From Candidatus Asgardarchaeum abyssi (lineage in GTDB: Archaea > Asgardarchaeota > Asgardarchaeia > Asgardarchaeales > Asgardarchaeaceae): a stretch of 19,264 nucleotides of DNA. The translations under genes were made by a program, and so were the position numbers. The stretch lies in assembly GCA_040225955.1 (NCBI GenBank), contig JBECUL010000019.1:15849-35112 (forward strand), written 5' to 3'. Shown here piece by piece: positions 40 through 19,264 of the stretch. The notes under the pieces were generated by a model. That model saw nothing but the letters and a program-made list of their open reading frames with translations, was not told the DNA's origin and did no database searches. Position 1 is the first letter of the stretch. Every line of letters starts with the position of its first letter.

Positions 40-3000
40 GTTGTATCGAATGCCTCGATGAATAGAGGACGGCAACAAAGAAAAAATCATTTTTTTATGA
101 GTTCATTGTATATTTCCTCAAGGTTGTATCGAATGCCTCGATGAATAGAGGACGGCAACCCAGAACTGCTTTGCTGTATCTGCCAGACTCTTTTCTTATC
201 CAAGTTGTATCGAATGCCTCGATGAATAGAGGACGGCAACATCATAAAAGTTAAGTCTATGTGGTGTCAGATTAACAATTCTCATGTTGTATCGAATGCC
301 TCGATGAATAGAGGACGGCAACGTTTTGACTATTTTTGCTTTCGCCGGGAATCTGACAATGTGGGTTGTATCGAATGCCTCGATGAATAGAGGACGGCAA
401 CGGTAAATGGCCTCAGCAACTGGATATACGCGGATATCTTCTGTTGTATCGAATGCCTCGATGAATAGAGGACGGCAACTGATTCATCAAAACAATGCCA
501 ACCGTTATGGCCCCGTAGAGAGTTGTATCGAATGCCTCGATGAATAGAGGACGGCAACCTCCCTGCTCTTCTGACTGCTCTGTAGAAGACTCTTGTTCAT
601 TGTTGTATCGAATGCCTCGATGAATAGAGGACGGCAACTGGGCCCTTGTCTTATCGAATTCGTCTAAGACCAATACTGTTTGTTGTATCGAATGCCTCGA
701 TGAATAGAGGACGGCAACTCTTGGTCAATTCGTTTAATCGCTTTACTATTGTATTAGTTGTATCGAATGCCTCGATGAATAGAGGACGGCAACCTTCTGA
801 CCCTTGTTGGATATCTCCATGCAGCTACATACCACTTGTTGTATCGAATGCCTCGATGAATAGAGGACGGCAACAAGCAATTGTTGAGCTCTTCCTATAG
901 GTTTTATTTTAATTATCGTTGTATCGAATGCCTCGATGAATAGAGGACGGCAACACGTTATAAAAGAAATGAGGGATGAGATTGTCTCAGAGATTGCGTT
1001 GTATCGAATGCCTCGATGAATAGAGGACGGCAACATGAGGAAAAAACTAAAGTATTGAAGATTTTGCCTATGCGTTTCGTTGTATCGAATGCCTCGATGA
1101 ATAGAGGACGGCAACAGCCACAGCGCGGGCACCGAGCAGGCGCCCGCGATAAAGCATGTTGTATCGAATGCCTCGATGAATAGAGGACGGCAACGGGGAC
1201 AAAAACATTGTAAGTAATGTGCTCTGAAGAAGGTTTTAGTTGTATCGAATGCCTCGATGAATAGAGGACGGCAACCCTTACGCGGTCTCGTACTCGAAAA
1301 CGATGTCGCAGTTTATGTTGTATCGAATGCCTCGATGAATAGAGGACGGCAACATTTCATCTGTATCTGTATATATAGTTAACTTATGTGGTGTAAGTTG
1401 TATCGAATGCCTCGATGAATAGAGGACGGCAACGTCATCATAAAAGTTAAGCTGGTGAGGAGTTAAGTTGATAATTGTTGTATCGAATGCCTCGATGAAT
1501 AGAGGACGGCAACTTTAGACCCCCCATGAGGGGGGTCTCTAACAATTTATAACCTTGTTGTATCGAATGCCTCGATGAATAGAGGACGGCAACATACTCT
1601 TCGTAGTGGTAAAGCACTAAAATCCACGTGAAGTTTCGGTTGTATCGAATGCCTCGATGAATAGAGGACGGCAACTGGCCTTTCAGGTTCCTCGTCATCA
1701 TCATTCCATTTAGCAATGTTGTATCGAATGCCTCGATGAATAGAGGACGGCAACTGTACTCATAAATCAAGCCCTCATCACGCCCACAGATTGGGCATGT
1801 TGTATCGAATGCCTCGATGAATAGAGGACGGCAACACAATGCGGGCATTCCACCACAACTGCTTTTATACCATCATGTTGTATCGAATGCCTCGATGAAT
1901 AGAGGACGGCAACGAGGAGGGCAGACAATCCTAGAACCTTTATGACCCCAACTATGTTGTATCGAATGCCTCGATGAATAGAGGACGGCAACCCCACTAG
2001 GGAGCTTCACAGACCTAGCAATAATTTCAAAGTTGTATCGAATGCCTCGATGAATAGAGGACGGCAACTCTACATTTTTCATGAACCCACCATTTAACGG
2101 TGGGTTCATGTTGTATCGAATGCCTCGATGAATAGAGGACGGCAACAATTGACGAACCATCCTGTAAAGTTAACGTCCCCTGTTCTTACGTTGTATCGAA
2201 TGCCTCGATGAATAGAGGACGGCAACTTTCTGTAATAATTTAAAAGTTCAGGATACTTCCTGAGATAGTTGTATCGAATGCCTCGATGAATAGAGGACGG
2301 CAACTGTACTGTCATCGGTTTTCAGGGTGTTGCTTATTGTTTTAGAGTTGTATCGAATGCCTCGATGAATAGAGGACGGCAACACGTCTTACAGCTACTA
2401 TGCGACCATTTGCATCACGTATGTTGTATCGAATGCCTCGATGAATAGAGGACGGCAACGCCGCAGGGGACGTCGTATATAAAGAAAGAAAAAGGGTTGT
2501 TGTATCGAATGCCTCGATGAATAGAGGACGGCAACGATATAATCGTTTGAGTGTTGGTAACATCAAAACGCTTACTATGTGTTGTATCGAATGCCTCGAT
2601 GAATAGAGGACGGCAACGTTCTCCAAACTCAACCTCTTCGGTACCCTCTTGGGTACTTTCATGTTGTATCGAATGCCTCGATGAATAGAGGACGGCAACT
2701 CGCTGTTCTAAACGAATTACACCTTCTGATGGGTACTTGAAGTTGTATCGAATGCCTCGATGAATAGAGGACGGCAACTTACAAAGTAAGCAAAGTCTAA
2801 GTTCTTTGTGTCTATTACTGTTGTATCGAATGCCTCGATGAATAGAGGACGGCAACTACAGTATTCACAGCTATCAACGGGCTCGTCACATTCGCTACAT
2901 ACGTTGTATCGAATGCCTCGATGAATAGAGGACGGCAACGGATCATATGTTCTGACGATGTATTCACTTCCGTCCTTTTGAAAGTTGTATCGAATGCCTC

Positions 3001-5518
3001 GATGAATAGAGGACGGCAACGATACACTGATGCATTTGTCGTAACCAAGTTCCCTAAGGTTTTGTTGTATCGAATGCCTCGATGAATAGAGGACGGCAAC
3101 TATAGCAAGCCCTGACCGGTCTCTCAAGGTAACCTTCTTCGTTGTATCGAATGCCTCGATGAATAGAGGACGGCAACCTAAGTTTTCGAGTACTTTAAGT
3201 ACTCTTTGATAGCCCATTTTGTTGTATCGAATGCCTCGATGAATAGAGGACGGCAACATCTCGCCACCATCATCGAGGTGAAGGAGTAAAGATATGTTGT
3301 ATCGAATGCCTCGATGAATAGAGGACGGCAACTCTCTCACTCTTATTCCCGTTCTTATTTTGCTCTCAGTTTTGAATTGTTGTATCGAATGCCTCGATGA
3401 ATAGAGGACGGCAACTTTGAAAGGATATAACAGTATACAATATTTAACCAATCTTTCAAGTAGTTGTATCGAATGCCTCGATGAATAGAGGACGGCAACG
3501 TCTCATCCATAGTGATGTAGGCAATAGCGTATAGTACACCGTGTTGTATCGAATGCCTCGATGAATAGAGGACGGCAACAGTGATGTAGGGCCCGTGTTT
3601 GGCACCATCACGTATTTTATTGTTGTATCGAATGCCTCGATGAATAGAGGACGGCAACTTGCTCCCAGTTTCATCGGGATAAACTGATTCCAAGACTGCA
3701 AGTTGTATCGAATGCCTCGATGAATAGAGGACGGCAACATAACCTGCGGGGCCTGAGGCCCCGCAGTTTTTAAATTAAACTTGTTGTATCGAATGCCTCG
3801 ATGAATAGAGGACGGCAACGGGCACAAAAGTGCTCCGTCGTCAAAACAAAGTATAGCGTCCTGTTGTATCGAATGCCTCGATGAATAGAGGACGGCAACG
3901 TGGTGATCCATTTAATGTGGGCTCGCCATATTCAACTTTTGTTGTATCGAATGCCTCGATGAATAGAGGACGGCAACGTATCGAGTATTTTTATTTCGTG
4001 TGGTGTCAAATTAACGTTGTATCGAATGCCTCGATGAATAGAGGACGGCAACTTTGAGCAAGAATTCATGTATCGGCTTATCACATTTTGGACGTTGTAT
4101 CGAATGCCTCGATGAATAGAGGACGGCAACAAATGATAAATCTTTGTCCTTCCCTTTTTATCTTGCAGAAATAGTTGTATCGAATGCCTCGATGAATAGA
4201 GGACGGCAACAGTGTAATTTGTATTTCACAGTGCCACCGCCATTTTCTTAATTTTCTGTTGTATCGAATGCCTCGATGAATAGAGGACGGCAACACTGCT
4301 GTCTTCGCTGACAATGCGAATCAAGTTTTTGGTGTAAGTGTTGTATCGAATGCCTCGATGAATAGAGGACGGCAACATTTTCGCAGAGTATCGATGGTTA
4401 TCTGATTTGCAATTACTTGTTGTATCGAAGGCCTCGATGAATAGAGGACGGCAACTGTCAAATTCATCCAAGACAAGTACTGTCAATTTCTTTTTACTTG
4501 TTGTATCGAATGCCTCGATGAATAGAGGACGGCAACTAGAACATATATAAATTTTTACATAAAATTTTTATATAACTTGTTGTATCGAATGCCTCGATGA
4601 ATAGAGGACGGCAACACTACGATGTATCTGCCGCCTCTGTAGGTGACTTCGGCTGCGATGACCTTCCCATGTTGTATCGAATGCCTCGATGAATAGAGGA
4701 CGGCAACAAGTATAATTCAGTGAAACAATCATATATTTCCTCACGAAAACGCATTTGTTGTATCGAATGCCTCGATGAATAGAGGACGGCAACATAATTC
4801 ATCCGCAGGCACAATTAGTGGTTTATATCCTTTGTTGTATCGAATGCCTCGATGAATAGAGGACGGCAACTTGCTTAGTCTAACATATACTCTTTGTGTT
4901 TTTCCTTCTCTTTTGTTGTATCGAATGCCTCGATGAATAGAGGACGGCAACCTCAGATTTCTTGAACCTTGTAGGAACTTGCAGAACGTTCTGAACTGTT
5001 GTATCGAATGCCTCGATGAATAGAGGACGGCAACCTCTTGGCAGATGTCGTATTCGCCACACCTTTTCGTTTCGGATTTGTTGTATCGAATGCCTCGATG
5101 AATAGAGGACGGCAACGAAAACTCAAGCATCTGACCAAGTCCTAAACGAATTCGCTGCTGTTGTATCGAATGCCTCGATGAATAGAGGACGGCAACTCGC
5201 TTATTCCATCAGCATTGCTGCCGATACGCGCTATGCATGTTGTATCGAATGCCTCGATGAATAGAGGACGGCAACACCGCACCAAGTTGCGATGGCCCTG
5301 TGTTTGGATAAGCAATAGTTGTATCGAATGCCTCGATGAATAGAGGACGGCAACACAAGCTCCTTATACTTTTGCTCCACCAGCTTCAGATATTCCTGTT
5401 GTATCGAATGCCTCGATAAATAGAGGACGGCAACATGCTATCTGTTGATTCACTGCTACCATGAGTCTCCTCTGTAGTTTCGTTGTATCGAATGCCTCGA
5501 TGAATAGAGGACGGCAAC
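40..5518 (+). CRISPR. CRISPR array: 69 x 37-bp repeat GTTGTATCGAATGCCTCGATGAATAGAGGACGGCAAC and 68 complete spacers (38-55 nt); continues beyond the left edge (1-39 is a partial spacer)
   Basis: Repeats were counted directly, from 40-76 to 5482-5518. Only two variants were seen: T12G at 4430 and G21A at 5418. The + orientation is inferred from the CCTC/GAGG stem (repeat nt 14-17/26-29) followed by exactly 8 nt, ACGGCAAC. This is Cas6-type geometry and resembles known type III 5' handles (ACGGAAAC, ATTGAAAC). Confidence 0.99.
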
Positions 5519-5856: not shown

Positions 5857-5890
5857 TTTAAATAGTATCTGAAAGACTATTATTTTGGTG
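5857..5890 (+). promoter_or_regulatory. Putative archaeal promoter (TATA box TTTAAATA 5857-5864) and GGTG ribosome-binding site (5887-5890) of the cmr operon
   Basis: TTTAAATA lies about 33 nt upstream of ATG 5897, and GGTG lies 6 nt before the ATG. The region is very AT-rich, so the TATA assignment is tentative. Confidence 0.45.
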
Positions 5891-5896
5891 TTTTTT

Positions 5897-7096
5897 ATGC
5901 ACTCTGCGGAATTTACTTTAGAGGCAGTAACTCCGATATTTATGTATGGTGCTGATACTAATGTTCCAGAGATTAGAGCTTCTGCAATAAAAGGTCTACT
6001 TAGGTGGTGGTTTAGGGCAATTCTTGGTGGTGTTAAATTTTCACAGGGTATTTATAAAGGGAATGTGTTGCTAGAAAAGGTCAAAGAAGAAGAAAAGATT
6101 TGGGGAACTACTAATGAGAAAAGTAAAGTTATAGTAAAGGTTTTTCCGATTAAACTATATAAAAAGCCATTTCCTATACTATTAAAAGGGGAGAGATTAA
6201 GGGAAAGAGGGAAAGGTATTAAATATCTTGGATTTGGTGTATCTAATAAGGTATGCATAACATATGGAAGTAAAATTAAAATTACGATTGCTTTTAGATC
6301 ACGAGTTTCAAGGATGGAGGAAAATAAAGTATTAGCAAGCTTATGGTTGTTGTTAAACCTTGGTAATATTGGGAGCAGATGCAGAAGAGGGTTTGGAAGT
6401 TTACGGGTTGAGAAGGATATCACGATAGATGAAATAGAGTTTCGTAGTCCAGCAAATGTAAACGATTTAGAAAAATATCTTAAAGCTGGGGTTCAGAAGT
6501 GTTTAGATTTGTTTGGTTGGAAAGGAGTCTCGGTAGAAACTCAGTCTTTACCCGAATTTTCAATGATAGTTCCTAAATTTTGGAAGATGAAAATTTTAGA
6601 TGATATATACAGTTCACCACTTGAAGCAATTAACGAATTAGGGATAAAAATACGAGAATATAGAGAGGACCGAGATAATCCATTTGCGAGACATACCCGA
6701 GCTACAAAAACTGGTAAGCGTTTCGCATATTGGGTTACGAAGGATTATAATGCAGTAAAAAGTATTTACTCATCTCAAATGCAATCCTCTACGCCCCAAG
6801 GATCCATATTTGGTTTACCACATCAATTTCAATTCCAGTCAATTAATAAAAAAGCTATAGTTACGGGTCTTACCAAAGAGAGGAGAGCATCTCCCTTATT
6901 TATAAAGATTTGGAAATTGGCTGAGAGAGAATATGTAGTTGGGTTGCAACTGTTTCTTTCTAAATTTGTTCCAACAGATAAATTACAAATTTCTGATTTA
7001 AGAAACCCGAAGATAGGAAGCGTAGTAAATGCACCGTCCTATAATTTTCTTATAGGTTTTTTGAATAGATTACGAGGAAGGTGGTTAACCTTATGA
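5897..7096 (+). CDS. cmr1: Type III-B RAMP protein Cmr1 (Cas7 group)
   Basis: N-terminal FTLEAVTPIFMYGA, EIRASAIKGLLRWWFRA, glycine loop GNIGSRCRRGFGS, C-terminal FGLPH and RRASPL motifs. The ORF track starts at TTG 5885, but ATG 5897 follows a GGTG RBS and is preferred. Confidence 0.93.
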   Translation: MHSAEFTLEAVTPIFMYGADTNVPEIRASAIKGLLRWWFRAILGGVKFSQGIYKGNVLLEKVKEEEKIWGTTNEKSKVIVKVFPIKLYKKPFPILLKGERLRERGKGIKYLGFGVSNKVCITYGSKIKITIAFRSRVSRMEENKVLASLWLLLNLGNIGSRCRRGFGSLRVEKDITIDEIEFRSPANVNDLEKYLKAGVQKCLDLFGWKGVSVETQSLPEFSMIVPKFWKMKILDDIYSSPLEAINELGIKIREYREDRDNPFARHTRATKTGKRFAYWVTKDYNAVKSIYSSQMQSSTPQGSIFGLPHQFQFQSINKKAIVTGLTKERRASPLFIKIWKLAEREYVVGLQLFLSKFVPTDKLQISDLRNPKIGSVVNAPSYNFLIGFLNRLRGRWLTL

Positions 7097-9924
7097 GTGC
7101 TTTTTGGCGAGATAAAATTAAAGCATTTCTTCATGATCCACCTGATAAAGCACTATATTTAGTTAGGTCGGATGAGGATAAGCTTGGGCATGAAGATAGA
7201 CGTGACAAAATACTGCAAGTTTTAAATTTAAAATATGATATACCTAGCGAGTTTGATTATGTTTCATCATCACTTCAAAGAATAAGTGTAAAAACCGCAG
7301 ACGAAGCATGGATAGATTTTACTAGAACTGAAAGGGAAAAGAGGCCTTATTTTATTCACACAATATCCGCTGTTACGAAAAATTATAAAGAAATTAATGA
7401 TACCATCATTGGCGTATATAAATCCAAGTTAAAGCTGCTGTTAAAAGATGTTATAGATAGTGAGCTAACTGCAATCTCAAAAATAAAGAAACTTGCTGAA
7501 GAATATTCGCAATCTGAAAATCAATATTACAAACAACTTTATTTGTACATATGGCGTTTTTTCAAAGATTTTTTATTTGATGAGTTAAAAAAGAAGGGGA
7601 TGTCTCAAGAACTTGCAGCTGAGTTGGTTAATCTACCTGCTGATACAAGAACTCCAGATCACACAATATGGGATCATATGGATATAGCCTCTGCGGTGTA
7701 TGGTGCGCTGAAAGAGAAATACCCTGTTTTACTTCTATTTAAAATTTCTCCAGTTCAGTCATTTATTCGAGCTGCACGGAAGGAGAAAGACTTATGGGCT
7801 GGTAGTCATCTGTTAAGCTTTCTAACATTTAAGGCCATGAAGGTAATCATTGATAAATATGGTCCTGATTCCATTATATATCCTCATCTTAGAGGACTTC
7901 CATTTATGGACATTTCTTACTTTAGTCATGCCACTAAGCAAATTGGTTATTATAAGAAAATTATTAAAGAGATTCAAATTGCAAGTATTCCTAATAGATT
8001 TTTAGCACTGATAGGAGTTCAATCGCCAGAGACAATAAATGGCATCGAAGAAGAGATAAAGGAAAATGTAATTGCCTTTTTGAGAGAATTAGGGGAATTC
8101 ACGTTTAAACAATTTATTCAATTAATTCCTGAAAATTATAAAAAAGATGAAAATTATTATCTTAAAAAATATCTTCCAGTAATAGAAAATTATTTTTCTA
8201 TTATAGTTGCTGTATTACCTTTTCCGAGTTTGAGTACAAGCAATTATGAGGAAATAAAACAGTATGTTTTATCAATGGATATTCCAAAAACTTTGAAAGA
8301 TAAATACATTGAATGGATTGAAGTATTAAGTAAGATAAGTGAGTATCCTGCTAGGTACCTTGATCTTTATGGCCTTATTTTTGAAATATTAACTGCCGTG
8401 TTAGCTGCAAAATCCATTAAATTGTCAAAAGGTAGGCAAGAATCTGGTTTTAAGTGTACTGTCTGCGGCGAGCTTGTTGCTATATATGGTGAAGAAAATT
8501 ATAGTACATTTTCTTCATTTTGGAGAGATATTGCAAGTAAAAGTAAAGAACTTGGTCGTTTTAAGTTAAATGAAAAATTATGTCCTATATGCCTAGTTAA
8601 AAGATATTATGCTGATTTATTGGAAAAACAAGTAGTTAGGGATAAAGAATTGAAAGTTGGTTTTGAGAGCGTTGCTAAAATGGCATTATCAAAGAAGGCT
8701 GATAAAATAGGAAAAATATACTATATTGCTTTTGAACAATCCAGCAAATTTGATGATTTCTTTAAGATTTTTAGAGATTTGATGATTAGTGCATCAAAAG
8801 AGAATTTTGATAATGTAATACCCCTTCTCGAGTTGTCTCGCATGGAGGATGAGAGATCTAGGAATCATGAGTGGTACTATATCGAAAAATATGATATTTC
8901 CCGATTTATGAATGATTTAAATATTACAAAACCTCTTAGCAAGGATATAAAGAAGAAATTAGATAAGATTAAAGAAATAATAAGGGAAATACACAGTGAA
9001 ATAACAAGTGACTCAGATCAGCCAAAATATTACGCAATTCTTGTTATTGATGGAGACAACATGGGCAAAATGCTTGTGGGAGATTCTTCAGAAATTAAAA
9101 ATTATACTTCCTATTTACATCATCAAATAGCTAATAGACTACCAGATAACGTAAGAAAAGATATTAAAAGAAAGTTAACTCCATCAATTCATATGGCAAT
9201 TAGCCGGGCTCTCATGTACTTTTCAACAAAAATTGTTCCAACGATAGTAGAAGATAAATACAATGGCGAATTAATATACTCTGGAGGAGATGATATTTTA
9301 GCACTTCTACCTATGGATACTGCTATTAAGTGTGCTTACGAAATTCAAAAGGAATTTAACAAAAACTACGATAATTGGGATTTGCTTCCAGCAAAGACCA
9401 TGAGCGGTGGAATTCTTATCGTACATTATTTACATCCTCTTCAAGATGCACTAGAAAGAGCTAGATATCTTGAAGAAAAAGCAAAAAAGAGTGGAAGGAA
9501 TGCGTTTTTCATAGGTTTCTTGAAAAGAAGTGGTGCATTTAAAATTGCTGGAGCCTCATGGGATATTTTGGGTGAAGGTAGCTTATCTGAAATTGTAAAA
9601 TATCTAAGGAGTGATAAATCCCCAAGAATCTCCAAGAGAATGATTTATGATGTTCTTCAAACAGCAGATGCTCTTAAGAATTTGAATGAAATAGAAGCCT
9701 ATCTAAAATATGAGCTATCAAGACACTTGCTTTATGATAAGGATAAGAAAAAGAAGAAAGTTGAAAATCTCGCCACTGAAATTGTAAAACTGATTAAATA
9801 TATTAGAGATGAAAAAGATCAATGCCAAGGAGAAGAAGATAGTGAGGCTTGTGCGAGAAAATTAAAGTCGTTATTTACATTATTTGAAATTCTTGTCGAT
9901 TCTGATAGCGATCTGGAGGCATAA
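7093..9924 (+). CDS. cas10: Type III-B large subunit Cas10/Cmr2 with HD nuclease motif, Zn finger and palm/cyclase domains
   Basis: FLHDPPDKAL (HD), LPADTRTPDHTIWDH, ISPVQSFIRAARKEKDLWAGSHLLS, CTVC...CPIC, DGDNMGK and YSGGDD (GGDD at 9283-9294). ATG 7093 overlaps the cmr1 stop (ATGA); the ORF track starts at GTG 7081. Confidence 0.97.
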   Translation: MSAFWRDKIKAFLHDPPDKALYLVRSDEDKLGHEDRRDKILQVLNLKYDIPSEFDYVSSSLQRISVKTADEAWIDFTRTEREKRPYFIHTISAVTKNYKEINDTIIGVYKSKLKLLLKDVIDSELTAISKIKKLAEEYSQSENQYYKQLYLYIWRFFKDFLFDELKKKGMSQELAAELVNLPADTRTPDHTIWDHMDIASAVYGALKEKYPVLLLFKISPVQSFIRAARKEKDLWAGSHLLSFLTFKAMKVIIDKYGPDSIIYPHLRGLPFMDISYFSHATKQIGYYKKIIKEIQIASIPNRFLALIGVQSPETINGIEEEIKENVIAFLRELGEFTFKQFIQLIPENYKKDENYYLKKYLPVIENYFSIIVAVLPFPSLSTSNYEEIKQYVLSMDIPKTLKDKYIEWIEVLSKISEYPARYLDLYGLIFEILTAVLAAKSIKLSKGRQESGFKCTVCGELVAIYGEENYSTFSSFWRDIASKSKELGRFKLNEKLCPICLVKRYYADLLEKQVVRDKELKVGFESVAKMALSKKADKIGKIYYIAFEQSSKFDDFFKIFRDLMISASKENFDNVIPLLELSRMEDERSRNHEWYYIEKYDISRFMNDLNITKPLSKDIKKKLDKIKEIIREIHSEITSDSDQPKYYAILVIDGDNMGKMLVGDSSEIKNYTSYLHHQIANRLPDNVRKDIKRKLTPSIHMAISRALMYFSTKIVPTIVEDKYNGELIYSGGDDILALLPMDTAIKCAYEIQKEFNKNYDNWDLLPAKTMSGGILIVHYLHPLQDALERARYLEEKAKKSGRNAFFIGFLKRSGAFKIAGASWDILGEGSLSEIVKYLRSDKSPRISKRMIYDVLQTADALKNLNEIEAYLKYELSRHLLYDKDKKKKKVENLATEIVKLIKYIRDEKDQCQGEEDSEACARKLKSLFTLFEILVDSDSDLEA

Positions 9925-9926
9925 TT

Positions 9927-11012
9927 ATGAAAATGGTATTATATCCATATGATGTTTTAATGTTTAGAGATTTCAGATCTTTTACTGCGGGAGAAGATGT
10001 AATAGCCAAATCAATTTTACCTATGCCTCATACATTAGCAGGTGCAATAAGGACAAAACTTTACTTAGACTATGGTAAAGAAGTGTATGAGCTAATTGGA
10101 TATAAGCGTACTGAACCGAATTTTATGATATATGGAACTTTTCTAAGTATTAATGGTGATGAAATTTTTGCTTTTCCTGCTGATATCGTTGAGTCTAAAG
10201 ATACTGAGAATTCGAAAAGTAAGTTATTTTATGTATATCCTCACAAGCTATATGATTCTGAAGAATATTTATTTTTTGCTGGAAGGTATATTCACTATGA
10301 ACCTGTTTATGATTATTTTCTTACTAAAGAAGGCTTAATTAAGTATCTGCTAGGTGAGTTGAGCGAAAATGATTTAGAGTCTAAAGAGGAAGCAGAAAAG
10401 TATATTATCCCGTCTAATAAAGTATATAGGAAAGAAGAACGTGTTGGAATAGCTCTTGATGAAAATAAGGTTACCAAATATGGATTCTTCTACATTTCAC
10501 AATTTCTTAGATTCGAAGAGAGTGTAGGTATCTCAATATGGCTTGATGACAGAGTTAAGAATTATCTTTCTCGAACTGGTTTTCTTAAAATTGGAGGAGA
10601 AGGGAGACTTGCTAGATATCAGCTTTTTGATGTCTCAGCTAAAGACGTTATTGCTGTAGATGTAAATGAACTGTTAGCGAAAATTGAGAAGAAAAAAAAG
10701 CTAAAAATATACCTTGCCACCCCCCTTGTCATACCCGATAGTGAAAATACCACAGAATATTTGCAAAAATCCCTAGAGAAGGCATTGTATACAAAAATAA
10801 AGAATATCTATCCTCTTGTGGACAAATTGTTACCTGTTGGAGGGTGGGATCTTGCTAGAAATAAGCCGAAAGAAGTAGCATATTCATTATCATCTGGTTC
10901 AATTATATTTGTGGAGTTTGACGGATCTATCAATATTAGTGAGTTTTTCTTTAAGATGGGTAATTTGCAGAAGTTAGGGTATGGATTATGTTTTATTGGA
11001 GTTTGGAGGTGA
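9927..11012 (+). CDS. cmr3: Type III-B Cmr3 (Cas5 group)
   Basis: PYDVLMFRDFRSF, LPMPHTLAGAIRT, EERVGIALD, LKIGGEGR, GGWDLARNKPK and terminal LGYGLC glycine loop. GGAGG RBS upstream. Confidence 0.95.
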   Translation: MKMVLYPYDVLMFRDFRSFTAGEDVIAKSILPMPHTLAGAIRTKLYLDYGKEVYELIGYKRTEPNFMIYGTFLSINGDEIFAFPADIVESKDTENSKSKLFYVYPHKLYDSEEYLFFAGRYIHYEPVYDYFLTKEGLIKYLLGELSENDLESKEEAEKYIIPSNKVYRKEERVGIALDENKVTKYGFFYISQFLRFEESVGISIWLDDRVKNYLSRTGFLKIGGEGRLARYQLFDVSAKDVIAVDVNELLAKIEKKKKLKIYLATPLVIPDSENTTEYLQKSLEKALYTKIKNIYPLVDKLLPVGGWDLARNKPKEVAYSLSSGSIIFVEFDGSINISEFFFKMGNLQKLGYGLCFIGVWR

Positions 11013-11018
11013 TTATAT

Positions 11019-11984
11019 ATGGTAGAAGAAAATGAAAAAGAAAGTGAAAAGAAATTAGTTTTAGGGATATATGCACTATCGCCATTGCACCCTGGAAGTG
11101 GTACTTATATAAATAGCCCTGTAGACCTACCCATTCAAAGGGAGCGGCATACAAACTTTCCAGTAATTTATGGTCAAGGTTTAAAAGGCGTTTTAAGAAA
11201 TGCTTATAGACGACTTAAAAATGATATTGAAAAAGAAGAATCTATCTTTGGTCCTAGACCAGAAAACTCTCGGGAGAAAAGCTTCTCAAGTGCTATAACC
11301 ATATGTGATGCAAAAATACTTCTATTTCCAGTACGCAGCTTAAAAGGGGTTTTTGCATATGTAACATGCCCAAAAGTGATAGAAAGATTCTTTATAGATC
11401 TATATTATTCAGGTTTGATTAAAGAAGAGTTATCTAGTCTTCTTAAAAAAGTTCCAGTAATTAATGAGGATGAAATTATTATTGAAAGTGAGTCATCTCT
11501 ATGTGTGAGTTCTACTGATGATAAGAGCAAAGAACAAGCGAAAGTAGTAGTTCTTGAAGATGTGGTATTGAAGGTTAAAGGGGATACTACTAAACTTCTA
11601 AATGACTTTATACCTTATGTTAGAAACTTGCTTCCAGCAGATATTATAGCTGACAAAAGATTTGCGGTTGTTTCCAACGATTTGTTTGAGCAATTTGTAA
11701 CGATGGCAACTGAAATAAATGCAAGAATAAAAATAAATTATGATACTGGTGTTGTTGAAACTGGAGCTTTATGGTACGAGGAAGATTTGCCATCCGATAC
11801 ATTACTCTACTCATTAATTATCATAGGGAGACCCAAGAAAGAAAACGAAACTATAAAGACGGCAGAAGATATAGCAAATGAGCTAAAGAAAAACTTTAAT
11901 GAGAAACTCGTACAGATTGGTGGAGATGAAACTGTTGGGAAAGGGCTCTGCGTTCTAAAGTTTTGGGAGGGTGAGAAAAAATGA
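11019..11984 (+). CDS. cmr4: Type III-B Cmr4 (target-RNA-cleaving backbone subunit)
   Basis: SPLHPGSG...VDLPIQRERHTNFPVIYGQGLKG, with the catalytic Asp position retained. Also LLFPVRSLKG, GALWYEEDLP and QIGGDETVGKG. GGAGGTGA RBS upstream. Confidence 0.97.
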   Translation: MVEENEKESEKKLVLGIYALSPLHPGSGTYINSPVDLPIQRERHTNFPVIYGQGLKGVLRNAYRRLKNDIEKEESIFGPRPENSREKSFSSAITICDAKILLFPVRSLKGVFAYVTCPKVIERFFIDLYYSGLIKEELSSLLKKVPVINEDEIIIESESSLCVSSTDDKSKEQAKVVVLEDVVLKVKGDTTKLLNDFIPYVRNLLPADIIADKRFAVVSNDLFEQFVTMATEINARIKINYDTGVVETGALWYEEDLPSDTLLYSLIIIGRPKKENETIKTAEDIANELKKNFNEKLVQIGGDETVGKGLCVLKFWEGEKK

Positions 11985-12409
11985 GAACCTTAGAGCAAGA
12001 AAGAGCAAAATATGCATTTGATGTGGTTCATGAGGTGAAAGAAAAAAGTTCTAAAGTACAGGAGAGCTATAATAGCTATTCGAAAAAGGCAGCAGTCCTA
12101 ATTTTGACTAATGGACTTGGGAATACTCTTGCCTATTATAAATCAAAATTCAAAGGAAAGAAGTTTGAGGAACTGGAGGAGGATGATGAAAAAGCATACT
12201 GCTTATTATACAAACATATTAACAATTGGTTATTGAGGAAAATTAATGTTGCAGGTAATTGTGAAAAAGACGTTTTGGAATGGATAATCAAAGACGCCAC
12301 ATCACTACAAGTATACCTACTAACTCGTGAAGTGGTTCTACTATTGAATTGGATTAAGCGGTTTGCAGATGCTGAACTGGAGCGTGAGGAGGAGAGAACC
12401 AGTGGATAA
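11981..12409 (+). CDS. cmr5: Type III-B small subunit Cmr5 (Cas11)
   Basis: MRTLEQERAKYAF, ILTNGLGNTLAY and LLNWIKRFADAEL; 142 aa, helical; ATGA overlap with cmr4. Confidence 0.96.
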   Translation: MRTLEQERAKYAFDVVHEVKEKSSKVQESYNSYSKKAAVLILTNGLGNTLAYYKSKFKGKKFEELEEDDEKAYCLLYKHINNWLLRKINVAGNCEKDVLEWIIKDATSLQVYLLTREVVLLLNWIKRFADAELEREEERTSG

Positions 12410-13286
12410 TAATAGCAGATCAAATACCATTTTTATGCTCTCAAATGAACTTGCTATGATACTTAATAAAGTTAAACCAACAAATTTGAGCCTTTGGTTT
12501 TATAGGTTTGTAAAATTTAGAGAAGAAAGTGAAGGAGTTTATAAACCCTCATTGGAGAACTCAGTTGGTAATAGGCTTAATCTCCCCTCGGAAGCTTATC
12601 AACTTTATAGAAACTATATAAATCTGCTAAAAACTTTAAAACAGCCAACATTCTCTGCTAAGAATATTACCCGTCTTGTTGTAGGTTTAGGCCAAGCTAA
12701 TGTTTTCGAAGTGTCCATAAAACTTCATAGGAACTACGGTTTTCCCTTCATCCCTGGATCGTCACTCAAAGGCATAGCTAAAAGTTATTCTTACATGTTA
12801 TTTAATGAGGTGATAGATAAAAATCTTTCTAAAGAACTGAGAGATATTTTTGATGGGAAAAAAAGCTTAGGTGAGACAAAAATAGATAAAAACGAGTATG
12901 TAACACTTAAGGATAAAACAAAAAGCGTAATTCTGTCATTAGAAGAAGCTCTTGAGATCTTTGGTACACAGACATTAGAAGGCGATATAATATTTTTTGA
13001 TTCGTTCCCTGATCCAGATACTCTTAGCTTAGAATTTGACATTATGGCACCGCACTATGGACCCTATTACGTAGGGGATGCGATTCCAGGAGACTGGCAT
13101 GATCCGACAATAATAAAATTTTTAACCATCAGTAGAGGTGCTAAATTCTATTTCTGGTTATCTTCAAGAAATAACAATAGTAGCTTGTTGAAAAAAGCAG
13201 TTATACTTCTTAAGTGTTCACTATCACAACTAGGAGTAGGGGCGAAGACCGCTTTAGGCTACGGACTGTTTTCTATAGACCAATAA
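12402..13286 (+). CDS. cmr6: Type III-B RAMP protein Cmr6
   Basis: RLVVGLG, LHRNYGFPFIPGSSLKG, FFDSFP, DIMAPHYGPYY, PTIIKFLT and GVGAKTALGYGLF. GTG 12402 follows GAGGAGG and overlaps the cmr5 end, so it is preferred over ATG 12363. Confidence 0.95.
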   Translation: MDNNSRSNTIFMLSNELAMILNKVKPTNLSLWFYRFVKFREESEGVYKPSLENSVGNRLNLPSEAYQLYRNYINLLKTLKQPTFSAKNITRLVVGLGQANVFEVSIKLHRNYGFPFIPGSSLKGIAKSYSYMLFNEVIDKNLSKELRDIFDGKKSLGETKIDKNEYVTLKDKTKSVILSLEEALEIFGTQTLEGDIIFFDSFPDPDTLSLEFDIMAPHYGPYYVGDAIPGDWHDPTIIKFLTISRGAKFYFWLSSRNNNSSLLKKAVILLKCSLSQLGVGAKTALGYGLFSIDQ

Positions 13287-13369: not shown

Positions 13370-15484
13370 ATGAAGAATAAATTGAATGAGAATGCTCTTA
13401 GTGTATTAAGGGCTTTTATTAAGGATAAAATAGTCAAGATTATCAGTGACGGAGATTTAGACGGAATATTTGCCACAGGTTTTCTAGTGATGTACCTTAG
13501 GAGTTCAGGTCTGGAGGTCGAATATTTCTATCCTGAGCCAGAGAAAATTAGGGGTTTAGTGGTTCAAGATTCTATTCTCGTAGAGCTTCCATTGACTAAA
13601 GGACTGACATATAAAGGTAAAAACTTGCTTTTTGATCATCACAATGGTCCTGCTAGAGTAGAATTATTTAATGAAAGCAATGTGGTAAAACGTATTGTTT
13701 TTCCAGACTGTAGAAGTGTTGCACAGCTAGTACGCGAAGCTCTTGGAATTGGTGTTGATAATGAGCTTTTAGAAGCAGTAAATGATATAGATAGTGGCGT
13801 ATACAGAACAAAAATTGCTAAGGATTTGCATAAGGCGTATTTGCTTAACATTTCTAGTAAGGAAATGAGAGAGTTTCTTACAGAGGCTGTTGCTAATGAA
13901 GAATGGTCAAAGATTTCAAAGTGGGCTTCAGAGGAGAGTAAAAAGTGGAAATATGTAGAGGATAAGGTTAGTGATATCATTAAGAATGTTAATATTATAA
14001 TACCTAGAGTTGCAGTTTTTACATATTATGAACAAAATGATATTGAAAGAGCTGCCAGAACTGAAGCCATGCTAAAATTAGAAGACCAGTACGATATTGT
14101 TGTATCGATTGGATTAAATGACAAGCACCAAGCAATTTCGGCTAGAATAGCAACTAAAAGAGACATTGACTTATCTGGAGTCTATCAACAATTGAGGGGA
14201 TTGGGATATACAGCTGGCGGACGAAAGAACGTTGGAGGTGTGCAATTTAATAATGAGAATCTCGATAATATTCTAAAGGTTCTTAAAAAGATAAGGTGGC
14301 CTATATCCAATTCTGACCCTTCTTTTGATGTTATTTACGCAGAGCCTTCTCTTAATATATTCTATCCAGACACTTTCTACTTACTCCCAGATGCTATGCG
14401 TGAAATCGATTATATTGGTGTAATAAAAATTACAGATAGTAAGAATAATAACGATTATTTATTGTATACGCTTGAGGAAGTCTCTAAATCGGGTGAAGAG
14501 TCTAAAAATATAGTTGACTTGGTAACTGGTATGAGACCTATTTTTTGGTATAAAGGTCAGCAACGTAAATTGGATGGAATACCATGTCTCTCAAATCTTA
14601 AAATACTTTATAGTGAAACAAAAAACAAAGCTGAAAATATAAAACCCTCATTTATTAAAGCTCTTGAAATAGATGCAGAGATTCACAATTTAATATACTA
14701 TGCTTTATTCTTTCTTTCAAAAGAAAATACAGAAAAAGTCTTGGATGATATTAAAAACAGTTATGGGGCGTGTCAAGTTTCGGAACCAATAGATATTTTT
14801 TCTAAATTTCTTGCAAATAAAGCTGAAATGTTTCTTAATATGTTCTTTAAAAAAGCCGAGAAAGAGATAATAATACCAGATATATCTAAAATTGACCCTA
14901 ATATACAGTGGGACGATATTTTTACAATCATTGCAGAGGATCTTAAACTGAGAAAAGAGGATGAATTGTCTATTTTATTTTTAGTTCAGTCTATCGGAAA
15001 GGAAACAATTGCGTATAAAGAAAGAGTGAATCATCAGAAAAATTGCATTCAGAATATAGTTGAAAAACTTAAAGATAAGGCCAGAATAAAAGTTTTTCTG
15101 GTTTCTAATAATCGTATAAATGAGCAAGTAGAGCGTATTAAAGAAATCCTGAAGGAAGATTTGAATATACCTATAGATGTCATTGACGAGGAGGTATTGA
15201 AAAAAGGCAAATTTGAAAGAATTAGAGAAGGGAAAGTAGTGGTTATAATTCTTTCTGACTATAAAAAGGATAGTATCTTTGCAATATTAAAGACTCTTTC
15301 ATCTACATCATGTTTAGTAGTTGTACCTGAATCAAGAATAGAACCTAAAAATACTAAGTCTATAGGCAAGCACCAGAAAAAGCTTCTGTATCCAGAACAT
15401 AAGTATTTTGAAGGGGCCTTATATGAAAATAGAGTGTTATATATATCTATGTCTGAACTTATCAAATTGAAAGCTATTAGGTGA
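13370..15484 (+). CDS. CRISPR-associated DHH/DHHA1 phosphoesterase (aa ~1-309) fused to an unknown middle region and a putative divergent CARF-like C-terminal domain (aa ~534-704)
   Basis: DHH motifs: DGDLDG, LVELP, FDHHNG, VNDIDSG, and DHHA1-type AGGRKNVGG. The C-terminal beta/alpha pattern (ILFLVQSIG / KVFLVSN / IPIDVI / VVVIILSDYKK / LVVVPE) is reminiscent of CARF. GGTGA RBS at 13359-13363. The DHH call is strong; the CARF call is by eye only. Confidence 0.8.
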   Translation: MKNKLNENALSVLRAFIKDKIVKIISDGDLDGIFATGFLVMYLRSSGLEVEYFYPEPEKIRGLVVQDSILVELPLTKGLTYKGKNLLFDHHNGPARVELFNESNVVKRIVFPDCRSVAQLVREALGIGVDNELLEAVNDIDSGVYRTKIAKDLHKAYLLNISSKEMREFLTEAVANEEWSKISKWASEESKKWKYVEDKVSDIIKNVNIIIPRVAVFTYYEQNDIERAARTEAMLKLEDQYDIVVSIGLNDKHQAISARIATKRDIDLSGVYQQLRGLGYTAGGRKNVGGVQFNNENLDNILKVLKKIRWPISNSDPSFDVIYAEPSLNIFYPDTFYLLPDAMREIDYIGVIKITDSKNNNDYLLYTLEEVSKSGEESKNIVDLVTGMRPIFWYKGQQRKLDGIPCLSNLKILYSETKNKAENIKPSFIKALEIDAEIHNLIYYALFFLSKENTEKVLDDIKNSYGACQVSEPIDIFSKFLANKAEMFLNMFFKKAEKEIIIPDISKIDPNIQWDDIFTIIAEDLKLRKEDELSILFLVQSIGKETIAYKERVNHQKNCIQNIVEKLKDKARIKVFLVSNNRINEQVERIKEILKEDLNIPIDVIDEEVLKKGKFERIREGKVVVIILSDYKKDSIFAILKTLSSTSCLVVVPESRIEPKNTKSIGKHQKKLLYPEHKYFEGALYENRVLYISMSELIKLKAIR

Positions 15485-16797
15485 GTATAGTGGATATTTC
15501 TAATATGGAAATTTACCTTAATTTAAAAATTAGAATGGGTGCGCGTGAATTTCTTAGAAAATTTATAAGTTTGTCGTCTAGCTATATGTTTAGCCCACGG
15601 ATAGGAAAAGAAATAAATGATGAAAATCTCCAATTGGCTATAATGTATGATAGAAATACTTATCAAAAAATTCTAGCATTAGATATCTATGGCAAAGACA
15701 ATGGAGTCGAAGGATATAAGCCTGGAAGGACATTTGCACTTTTGAAGTACCTATCAGTTAATCCAATGGCCTTTTATATAGCCATTACCTCAAGGATTGT
15801 AAAAGATACAAAAGAAGCTTGGGCTCCAAAATATCTTTCATGGGCCCATCGTTCCGCGAAGAAAATGACACCCCTTATAAAATATTGTGATCTTTATTGC
15901 AATTCACAAGAGTATAATGTTTATCAAGATATAGAATCAGTAGCATTAACTCTAGCTGCTCTTACATCGGGAGTTCATAGGAATGCTTTATCCTTAAGAC
16001 AAGTAGCAACACAATGGGTCGCATTAAAATTAGCTTGTAGTAAGTCAGATAAGATATTACTATCAAAGTTATTAGTAAGTCTCCTTATGGACACATTAAT
16101 ATGGCTTCCTGTTGTCTTAAAGTATAAAGCTGGTGTATATGGCTCGGAGTTTATACATAGCATCGCAGCATCGTTTCTTATTGGACTTACTCGACTTTCG
16201 GAACAGAAAATTAATTTCTTAAAAGAAAACCTTAGGGGGCTTGAAGAGTGGATAACAACCATGAAATATAAAAGTTATTCGCAAGCCGTAGTTTCTATAT
16301 CTAATAAGATAAAATGCATTTTAAGCACATGTATAAAAAGCGACTTAGACCCTCTTTTAGGTCGTCTTGCAGTTTTAGATTCAAAAACTATATGGAAAGA
16401 AAAACTAGAAAAATTGGAGAAAAATAAATATAGGCAAGTAGCGTTATTGCTCACAGAGCAGAGCGGACCAGCTCAGATAGTGTTTCTTTTAGAAAAGTTA
16501 AAAGATTACTTATCAGGAAATGTTAAATTGATCCTATTCTACACTCAACAGACGTTATGGAACAGACTCTTAATTTCCGATATGGAAAAAATAATAGAAG
16601 AACTATTAAGGGATATTAATGTACACGTTACTGATAAAGTAAAATATATTCCCATTGCAACAGCGTCGCCTTTGCTAATCAGAAAGATAATATCCTCATG
16701 CGATTTTAAAGACACATTAGTATTAATACAAGGACCACTTATACCATCTATCCTCCTCGTCCTATATTCTGAAAAGGACAATAGTATATTAATCTAA
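15481..16797 (+). CDS. CRISPR-associated hypothetical protein: helical N-terminal region plus a putative CARF-like C-terminal domain (aa ~318-438)
   Basis: 438-aa ORF whose GTG start overlaps the upstream TGA (GTGA). The C-terminal pattern VALLLTEQSGP / KLILFYTQQT / KVKYIPI / TLVLIQGPLIPSILL follows the CARF Rossmann strand order. Coding status is confident; function is not. Confidence 0.7.
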   Translation: MSIVDISNMEIYLNLKIRMGAREFLRKFISLSSSYMFSPRIGKEINDENLQLAIMYDRNTYQKILALDIYGKDNGVEGYKPGRTFALLKYLSVNPMAFYIAITSRIVKDTKEAWAPKYLSWAHRSAKKMTPLIKYCDLYCNSQEYNVYQDIESVALTLAALTSGVHRNALSLRQVATQWVALKLACSKSDKILLSKLLVSLLMDTLIWLPVVLKYKAGVYGSEFIHSIAASFLIGLTRLSEQKINFLKENLRGLEEWITTMKYKSYSQAVVSISNKIKCILSTCIKSDLDPLLGRLAVLDSKTIWKEKLEKLEKNKYRQVALLLTEQSGPAQIVFLLEKLKDYLSGNVKLILFYTQQTLWNRLLISDMEKIIEELLRDINVHVTDKVKYIPIATASPLLIRKIISSCDFKDTLVLIQGPLIPSILLVLYSEKDNSILI

Positions 16798-16818: not shown

Positions 16819-17071
16819 TCAGCTAACTTTCTTCTTATGTAAAAACCAAGCAATATCCCTTTGCTCATGACTTTCTTTTTATTTCTTCCTTTGTCAAAAG
16901 AGGTGGAAGTAATACTTCATCTCTGGGTTTCCAATTTGCTGGCGTCATGACGTTGTGCTTTTCTATAATTTGAAGAGCGTCAATTATTCTTATGATCTCG
17001 TCGATGTTCCTACCCACATTTAGGGGGTAGTGAAGGATAGCTCTGATTACTCCTTCAAGGTCTATTATAAA
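16819..17071 (-). pseudogene. 5'-truncated, frameshifted peroxiredoxin (Prx6/1-Cys, archaeal TDXH-like) remnant
   Basis: The minus strand translates FIIDLEGVIRAILHYPLNVGRNIDEIIRIIDALQIIEKHNVMTPANWKPRDEVLLPP..., containing the hallmark GRNxDE and TPANW motifs. There is a stop at 16865-16867, and the natural tail DIAWFLHKKKVS* is in another frame. It has no start codon and no peroxidatic-Cys half. Confidence 0.88.
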
Positions 17072-17171
17072 ATTTTGATAAAAAAGTTTTTCCTAAAATA
17101 GCGAACAATAATATACAACATTTTAGCGATTATTCCGAACCTAATATACATATTTACGGTAGGTGGTTAGA

Positions 17172-17425
17172 ATGGATTTATTTGAATTTCTTTACAAACT
17201 TGGTGAAAAGTATGGATTGTCAAAACTTGATATTTTGGAAATGATACGCTTTTTAAATGGAACCATCCTGTTGCACAGTATGATGTATTATTGCGATTAT
17301 TTAAGGAACACGGAATTGAATTAGAATACTTAGATAAAGTACGATTAATGCAATTTTTCCCATATATAGATGTTCAGAGTTGGAGGGAAAAACGTGGAGG
17401 ATATAGATATAGAAAATCTCACTAA
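17172..17425 (+). other. Small gene split by a -1 frameshift (50 aa in frame 0, about 84 aa if shifted); programmed frameshift, pseudogene or sequencing error
   Basis: AGGTGG RBS plus ATG 17172 gives MDLFEFLYKLGEKYGLSKLDILEMIRF..., with a stop at 17322-17324. The -1 frame continues KWNHPVAQYDVLLRLFKEHGIELEYLDKVRLMQFFPYIDVQSWREKRGGYRYRKSH* to 17425. The junction is T TTA AAT (17252-17258). Confidence 0.55.
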
Positions 17426-17994
17426 ATTATCTTTTAACAGAAATAATTGATTTATGGATTAAAGTGTGTTTGCAAAAGGAAATGATTTATAGATTTATCA
17501 AAAGCCCTGTTGACGTATTAAGATTAAGTTGCATAGAAATGTTCAACAAATAGAGGATGTTGTGATTCAGAGAGTTTTTGTCAATATCTTTGGGTACTCG
17601 TATATATGGAATTTGTTCGTGTCTATTTCTTCGATATGCTCTACTAAGTCCAATTTTTTCATTTATTGGATCTGTTATATTTTCTTGCTCTACTGTATTT
17701 TCAGTTCTATAATTTTCTTGAGTATAAGTTCTTATTGTTTCATGTTTTGCAAAACGTTTCTCTTTTTTGGAAATATTCCTTTGCAAAACTAATACTGGCG
17801 ATTTAATGAAATATTGTATAAAATAAGGGTATGAGATAAATTACATAATACAGTTACAATCTTCTGGGCTTGACTGACAGTTGATAACCTATCCTTTGTC
17901 ATGAGATGAATAATTGAACTTTGATCGGCATCAATTTGTCGAAGAATGTTTTTACAATTTTGATATTGTGTGATCTTGTGGGAGATGTTACGTG

Positions 17995-19264
17995 ATGAGA
18001 ATTCGTATTAAAATGCTATATGGTCTGTTATTGTTCGTATTAGTATTTTCCATAGTAGGATCTGCTATTATTCAATATACAGGTTACAATGAAAACATCC
18101 AAATTGTAAATCAAGTTAGCAATATGGCCATATCTAATGTTATTGCTAGTAACGCAATAGATACTGAAAAGTATATTAAACAAATAACATTTATAGAGAG
18201 GAATCCGAATACTATCATGGATGAGTATGCCTATTTAGCAGCTGTTCCTAACAGTATTATTTATGATTCTGATGGCATAAAGTATATTTCACCCATCCTG
18301 TATGGCATGTCAGATATTGAGCAGTATTACTTAGAAGATTGGGCATCTTATCTTAATGGATGGCCTGGGACTACTATCATACACCTTGTTGGAGACTACA
18401 GTCCTGGCTTTAAGAGCAATGTGCTATCCTATTTTGAAGAAAGTTCATATCGTGAGTATTCAAGTAGCGATGCAATACAGTTTGCAAAGGATATTGCGAT
18501 AAGCAACTGGATAAATTCCAGCTATGCGGTATTAGCTCCTATAGATACGTCTCTAGGTGAGCACACATATTCCGGGTCTTTTACTGGAAACTTTTCAGAC
18601 ATATCTTGTGATAAGTATGTAAGCAGACTTGTTACATATGATTATAATGTATTATACTTTAGTTTCCCATATTTTGCAGAAAGTCCACATCCTTATAGTA
18701 ATAACATGAACCAGATCTATACTATACATGTAGATGGTGCAGTAGCATTAACTCTTCACTTTGAAAAAATTGATGTTGAAGAAAACTTTGACTACGTGCG
18801 AGTATATGATGGCCAATGGAATTTAATTGCAGAATATACAGGATATTATGAAGATGTATGGACGCCAAAAATTATCGGTAACGTTGCATACATTGAGCTA
18901 TGCACAGACTCTTCGGTTACTGCGTGGGGATTTGTTGTGGACCATTTAATATATTCAAAACCACCAATGCTAACATTGGATGGCGATTCATTTTCGTATG
19001 ACTTTTATGTTAATTCTAATGTCAATTATGTGTTAGCATACATATATACCAATGAAACTTCAAGTACAAAATCAGTAATAGGAGTTTATCTGAAAGACGC
19101 TAGTGGCAGGGTAGTTGATTATTCCATTGTTCCTGGTAGTGAACGTAGCTCTCGATCTGTAAATGTTTCTTATTTTGATATAGGCTATAGTGATAGACTG
19201 TTCTGGTTGAATAATATGGAGGGATACTACACAATCACATTCGAAGCAATAGATATTCCAGACG
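17995..19264 (+). CDS. Secreted or cell-surface protein with a CUB domain (3' end beyond the window)
   Basis: Open frame to the window edge, not listed in the ORF track. N-terminal signal/anchor MRIRIKMLYGLLLFVLVFSIVGSAII. CUB signature ESPHPYSNN...LHFEKIDVEENFDYVRVYDG...YTG...TDSSVTAWGF at about 18679-18942. The in-frame GTG at 17992 is an alternative start. Confidence 0.85.
   Translation, partial: MRIRIKMLYGLLLFVLVFSIVGSAIIQYTGYNENIQIVNQVSNMAISNVIASNAIDTEKYIKQITFIERNPNTIMDEYAYLAAVPNSIIYDSDGIKYISPILYGMSDIEQYYLEDWASYLNGWPGTTIIHLVGDYSPGFKSNVLSYFEESSYREYSSSDAIQFAKDIAISNWINSSYAVLAPIDTSLGEHTYSGSFTGNFSDISCDKYVSRLVTYDYNVLYFSFPYFAESPHPYSNNMNQIYTIHVDGAVALTLHFEKIDVEENFDYVRVYDGQWNLIAEYTGYYEDVWTPKIIGNVAYIELCTDSSVTAWGFVVDHLIYSKPPMLTLDGDSFSYDFYVNSNVNYVLAYIYTNETSSTKSVIGVYLKDASGRVVDYSIVPGSERSSRSVNVSYFDIGYSDRLFWLNNMEGYYTITFEAIDIPD

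Follow-up and report, generated by a model that had tools for sequence, protein, structure and literature searches.

Cmr complexes detect foreign RNA, and Cas10 makes cyclic oligoadenylate (cOA). Most CARF proteins homodimerise (PMC13187428); the asymmetric Can1 binds cA4, the single-chain asymmetric Csm6-2 prefers cA5 (PMC13187428), and in complete archaeal genomes Hoikkala et al. saw no effector activated by cA3 or cA6 (PMC11229360). The DHH enzyme NrN degrades SAM-AMP and does not cleave cOA (PMC10600005), and standalone CARF proteins at type III loci are often ring nucleases (PMC9638899). Here we consider two genes, A and B, that follow a type III-B operon in a 19,264-nucleotide stretch of DNA (the window) from Candidatus Asgardarchaeum abyssi. 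The operon, cmr1-cmr6, was delimited from Pfam matches and the list of open reading frames (ORFs) at 5885-13286 on the plus strand, the strand of all window features below unless stated, and ends with the stop of cmr6 at 13286. Gene A (13370-15484, 704 amino acids) begins 83 bp downstream and encodes a DHH-DHHA1 region, a putative nuclease domain, a helical domain and a C-terminal CARF domain. It overlaps its constant partner, gene B (15481-16797, 438 amino acids: alpha/beta domain, helical domain, C-terminal CARF), at GTGA, 15481-15484, so that the ORF coordinates agree with a preliminary description of this DNA, which had placed two GTGA-overlapped same-strand genes after cmr6. An alternative start for B is a GTG three codons later, as in record P0006 (435 amino acids).

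On balance we favour the proposal that the products of A and B together make up a single heterodimeric ancillary effector of a type III CRISPR system, and we consider the full mechanism set out here reasonably probable. Detection of foreign RNA by Cmr would lead Cas10, whose catalytic residues are present, to produce cOA. The unlike C-terminal CARF domains of A and B are predicted to pair into a single asymmetric pocket, to which A would give a lysine loop, D630-x-x-K633, and B the elements T325-x-Q327 and T355; these residues are conserved, and we infer that they bind the ligand. Binding would then, via the helical domains, turn on a single metal-dependent nuclease site in A (E345, D347, E369 and K379), with the N-terminal domain of B perhaps a non-catalytic partner in the manner of Can1's nuclease-like domain, and the output would be collateral cleavage of DNA or RNA. 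The DHH domain would act as an off-switch by degrading the signal or its linear products. It is possible, if doubtful, that the signal read by the two-gene CARF sensor is asymmetric, either cA3, cA5 or some nucleotide not yet described, and that the DHH domain is a new cOA-erasing class interchangeable with a standalone CARF ring nuclease. Observations that weigh against a heterodimeric nuclease effector are given below, beside the evidence they qualify or the alternative they favour.

Neither B nor the part of A downstream of the DHH region (residues 316-704, used as a profile and referred to as A-core) belongs to a named family in Pfam, PADLOC or NCBIfam. No known effector profile matches A or B, in keeping with the earlier remark that the window holds no recognisable known effector gene, and the architecture, then noted as unrecognised, is indeed absent from the profile libraries and papers searched. 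The close homologues are two full-length A proteins (59%), one 400-residue form lacking DHH, and two B proteins, while the A-core profile gave 26 representatives, mostly standalone proteins of 350-460 amino acids, which indicates that A-core is what is conserved and that DHH has been added to it. A B homologue follows A-core in 14 of 14 loci with readable downstream DNA (the window, C24, L001, L003, L009/L013, L014, L024, L027, L029, L030, L039/L040 and the diverged L118, L119 and L121), as two genes in every locus, with no A-B fusion among the matches. Profile comparison shows the proteins of the three diverged loci to be homologous (for B, 97.8% with E = 1e-12; for A-core, E = 6e-4 together with synteny); a scan of the species genomes with B gave no matches. 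Eight A+B loci adjoin type III genes of different subtypes (the window, III-B, and C24, L001, L003, L024, L030, L118 and L119), the C24 pair being divergent from cas10 and the L003 pair lying between a cas10 operon and an array; apart from L014, L120 and L121 (see below), the other loci are on contigs that are short. Each of the seven species genomes that carry the module has cas10, compared with 69 of 400 in the phylum, the seven carriers coming from four families and not being independent. This survey of gene neighbourhoods supports the type III linkage that had been supposed.

Fold searches with models of A and B ranked CARF proteins at the top in both cases, and with VIA-align the top 14 rows for B were all CARF proteins, including one whose annotation says no more than hypothetical. 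By these searches both C-terminal domains are predicted to have the CARF Rossmann fold, as the preliminary description had suggested: A 531-704 (14960-15481), a putative half-site with Q540, D630 and K633, and B 316-438 (16426-16794), a putative half-site with T325, Q327 and T355. Foldseek hits to methyltransferases or eIF2B with whole models (TM about 0.2) were rejected as generic Rossmann noise, and the ESM Atlas gave no feature matches, weak structure rows only. The canonical (D/N)xTGGxK loop is absent, A having D-Y-x-K (LSDYKK, 628-633) and B having Q-G (IQGPL, 416-420). The earlier claim that the TGGxK loop is replaced in both proteins holds for the motif but not for the CARF lysine of A, since K633 occupies the TGGxK lysine position and is invariant in 30 of 30 sequences. 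In B, T325-x-Q327 and T355 are conserved CARF elements. No similarity between A-core and B was found by hhalign, so paralogy is not shown.

When predicted as a complex, A-core and B scored 0.88 against 0.00 for the best of three controls; a score of 0.88 was reached by 58 of 80 solved pairs and by 2 of 110 mismatched pairs. The runs had at least 68% of contacts in common, with a partner pLDDT of at least 74. The predicted interface sets A 627-657 and 686-704 against B 416-437, which is the usual CARF dimer surface, with the beta4-alpha4 loops of the two CARFs meeting there, and B 355-406 lies on residues 434-478 of A's helical linker domain (411-530; 14600-14959). The heterodimer through both CARFs envisaged at the outset is upheld as a prediction, although solved CARF dimers exist and part of the score may therefore reflect likeness to them.

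The extra part of A is not merely helical, as first described, and starts with an alpha/beta domain that had been missed (316-410; 14315-14599), with beta-beta-beta-alpha-beta topology and residues E345, D347, E369, E376 and K379. None of 31 sequences, most of them sharing about 20% identity, departs from E345, D347 or E369 (L121 being read upstream of its called start for E345), K379 is found in 29 of the 31, and a lysine at 371 gives the canonical ExD...ExK in four diverged relatives. The PD-(D/E)xK pattern, ExD followed by ExK or a relocated Lys on a beta-beta-beta-alpha-beta core, is present in A, and the acidic residues parallel the Can2 motifs E-ExD-(E/S)CK and E-ExD-SxTTS-K (10.1101/2023.09.18.558242) and the Can1 nuclease residues E541/D543/E560/K562 (10.1101/784280). 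From conservation and topology we regard the domain as a putative metal-dependent PD-(D/E)xK nuclease site. Its hhalign comparison with the PD-(D/E)xK fold gave E values of 0.05-0.25, like controls, and known family pairs scored equally weakly; within the genome, the N-terminal profile had its best non-family match in a nuclease domain linked to an ATPase (E = 0.035), on which we do not rely, and PHROGs had no match for A's N-terminal domain. An apparent enrichment of DUF234 scores with the nuclease-domain profile was rejected as compositional, as reversed sequences showed it too.

Given that a nuclease is not proven by any fold or profile result, the CARF sensor could be a real heterodimer with a different output, the A site being another metal enzyme, or the N-terminal and helical parts of B being toxic. 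The N-terminal domain of B (1-150; 15481-15930) lacks A's acidic motif and might be nuclease-like as in Can1. B has conserved residues of its own (H123, R167 and Q178 throughout 12 sequences, H166 in 11 of those 12, and E223 in all 11 compared), which would suit such an output. On the other hand, the diverged branch has lost the His and Arg residues of B and retains the acids of A, and the invariant residues and topology of A match the Can2 motif, with canonical ExD...ExK in the four relatives; we therefore judge a non-nuclease output unlikely.

A and B might also be co-inherited and yet each homodimerise by itself, giving either a pair of effectors or one effector plus a regulator. Homodimerisation is usual among CARF proteins (PMC13187428), which would favour this, but the constant A-then-B coupling, the complementary half-motifs and the predicted interface, including the placement of B's CARF on A's helical domain, make it improbable.

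With regard to the signal read by the proposed heterodimer, Cas10 (cas10/cmr2, 7081-9924, 947 amino acids) has an HD motif and the GGDD motif reported earlier, the latter at residue 735. SAM-AMP synthases have acidic residues, D70 and E151, at the positions of Pfu N300 and R436 (PMC10600005). In an alignment to Pfu Cmr2 this Cas10 has N305 at the N300 position and K447 at the R436 position (K447 is beside a gap and less sure), neither of them acidic, so that the acceptor site appears to be of the cOA type and cOA is the likely signal. No CorA gene was found among the ORFs of contig C19, which carries the window and ends 2.5 kb after B, or in the other loci read, and neither A nor B has a HEPN profile match; one distant member matches a Csx1 profile only at E = 0.005. 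Were the signal SAM-AMP or another non-cOA nucleotide, the DHH domain would be an equivalent of NrN and the divergent CARFs would read an unusual ligand, a lead raised in the preliminary description. The activity of NrN, a DHH enzyme that acts on SAM-AMP and not cOA (PMC10600005), and the non-canonical CARF loops of both proteins speak for it; N305 and the basic residue at the R436 position, the lack of CorA, and the unrelated Cas10s that the A+B pair serves leave it disfavoured and quite improbable.

The DHH-DHHA1 phosphoesterase region identified by Pfam (A 1-312; 13370-14305) is an exchangeable third component that may well erase the signal. Residues 24-307 contain a DHH match that falls short of the curated cut-off (E = 2e-4) and a DHHA1 match (E = 2e-6), and D29, D31, E72, D89-H90-H91, D141 and G283-G284 are invariant across 16 relatives. 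The DxD, DHH, fourth Asp and DHHA1 GG loop are all present, and the motifs are intact as stated before, with Glu instead of Asp in motif II and Arg instead of His in the DHHA1 loop. The closest solved relative is an archaeal pAp phosphatase (8a8k, E = 8e-5). Of the five closest standalone DHH relatives (36-44%), four lie directly upstream of a diverged A gene as genes in their own right (genomes G312, G317, G322 and G324), and B follows in the three cases where the contig continues; more distant standalone relatives had no cas gene, by eye, in the 1.5 kb read. In another lineage a 175-residue CARF without an effector domain fills the DHH slot, fused in P0013 and P0029 and as a divergent neighbour in L028, L029 and L039, and some A+B pairs carry neither.

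The exchange of DHH and small CARF in one slot fits an off-switch better than an effector. We put the chance that A's DHH domain is an accessory off-switch, degrading the signal or its linear products, at about even, with the caution that NrN does not cleave cOA and that the substrate here could therefore be a linear product. Of the two roles first offered for the domain, a built-in eraser is the better option. Its activation by the signal, as the effector, would suit its fusion to A and equal conservation (66% identity) in the window lineage and its position directly upstream in four more genomes; but DHH is missing from the majority of A-core relatives whereas the A+B core is constant, a separate protein may carry DHH, and intact A+B pairs lie next to cas10 without it (L024, L025 and L030), which makes a DHH effector very improbable. 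Finally, it is scarcely credible that both C-terminal folds are just generic ones of Rossmann or methyltransferase-like type, linked to cas genes by defence-island coincidence, for which the mostly methyltransferase Foldseek matches of A-core and three loci away from cas genes could be cited (L014, which has decayed and shows two in-frame stops and a B in pieces; L121, with none within 5-7 kb; L120, with none upstream and ending at a contig edge), set against the uniformly CARF top rows for B and cas10 in every carrier genome.

Other CARF genes accompany these loci. The unnamed 175-residue family (L028:47-580, L029:338-868, L039:753-1280 and the N-termini of P0013 and P0029) has an N-terminal helical extension and a Gln in place of the TGGxK lysine, and is a candidate new ring nuclease; a search for its solved relatives gave none. 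Upstream of the CRISPR array, on the same contig and outside the window, are a CARF-only protein with weak Csx14/Crn1 matches (L010:624-1310), a 320-residue divergent CARF protein (9327-10289) and a Csa3-like CARF-HTH protein (10413-11174). The first two are candidate ring nucleases, so the DHH domain may not be the sole off-switch.

The array itself (40-5518, strand not assigned) has a 37-nt repeat that occurs 69 times within the window and 104 times on the whole contig; further upstream (C19:14482-15550) a stretch of several spacers occurs twice with identical translations, either a duplication or an assembly artefact. Upstream of the window, an operon at L010:4768-8954 resembles a TerY-P triad (vWA, protein kinase, PP2C phosphatase, a Cys-rich small protein, another vWA) and separates the adaptation/cas6 genes of this CRISPR locus from its CARF genes, and a 345-residue gene between cas6 and cas1 (L010:2246-3283), unmatched in Pfam and NCBIfam, shows a PIN-like motif by eye. 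Downstream of B, an AT-rich stretch (16820-17500) has short broken reading frames, possibly gene remnants, and a secreted-looking protein with a CUB domain (17992-19264; Pfam E = 9e-9), unrelated to the CRISPR module, is cut by the contig end. Two of the three cas10 loci of this genome carry A+B, the second pair being distant, without DHH and divergent from its cas10 operon (L025:9139-12044, C24:12138-15043, minus strand). The third operon (C55:1027-12891) has no pair; it has what looks by eye like a Csx1-like CARF protein of 421 residues, and a HEPN fragment (PF09670) lies at the contig end. Elsewhere, two unassigned genes, one of 527 residues (L024:6960-8543) and one of 417 residues (L001:4183-5436), the latter with a C-terminal nuclease-like ECK motif by eye, lie between the pair and the type III operons, and the decayed DHH-A fusion and split B at L014:1731-5166 stand beside an ATPase-nuclease gene and a kinase.

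Compared with described systems, A+B most likely works like Can1 (Thermus thermophilus TTHB155, PDB 6SCE), in which one pocket is built from two unlike CARFs and one active nuclease site is joined by a non-catalytic partner domain (10.1101/784280), as we infer for A+B; B aligns, weakly, with the nuclease-like domain and CARF2 of Can1. By the features tested, however, it appears to be a member of none of Can1, Can2/Card1, Csx1/Csm6 or CorA-NrN. Can1 is a single CARF-nuclease-like-CARF-nuclease chain without a sequence-level match here, whereas A and B are two genes, each with its CARF last and a helical domain between, and have a DHH or CARF accessory. Can2/Card1/Cdn1 (CARF plus PD-(D/E)xK) are the best structural matches for both CARFs; Can2 shares the ExD motif of A, its clade 1 offers a precedent for a lysine shifted to the next helix (10.1101/2023.09.18.558242), and the T-x-Q loop of B corresponds to Cdn1 T9/Q11. 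Can2/Card1 nevertheless are one-gene homodimers with an N-terminal CARF, a C-terminal nuclease and NxTGGTK, a motif absent from A and B, and neither protein matches PF09002. Csm6-2 shares an asymmetric two-CARF pocket and binds the odd-numbered cA5 (PMC13187428), but is a single chain with HEPN RNase domains; CorA-NrN likewise has a DHH phosphodiesterase adjoining or fused to a type III effector (PMC10600005), but senses through CorA, where the sensor here is CARF, and the present Cas10 is without the D70/E151 signature; Cam1, among the fold-search matches, shares the C-terminal CARF (PMC11229360) but is a single-gene effector with an N-terminal membrane domain. Asymmetric pockets can read odd-numbered signals, and the DHH/CARF swap bears directly on whether cOA, which NrN leaves intact, can be erased by a DHH enzyme. 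As Pfam, PADLOC and NCBIfam all miss the family, it may account for archaeal type III loci seemingly without an effector. The literature searched contained no two-gene CARF heterodimer, though a CARF classification may mention one briefly; the CARF effectors in those papers are homodimers or single-chain fusions (Can1, Csm6-2). We take A+B to be a probable addition to the cOA-activated CARF effectors, and with a two-gene heterodimer the pocket would be built in a third way.
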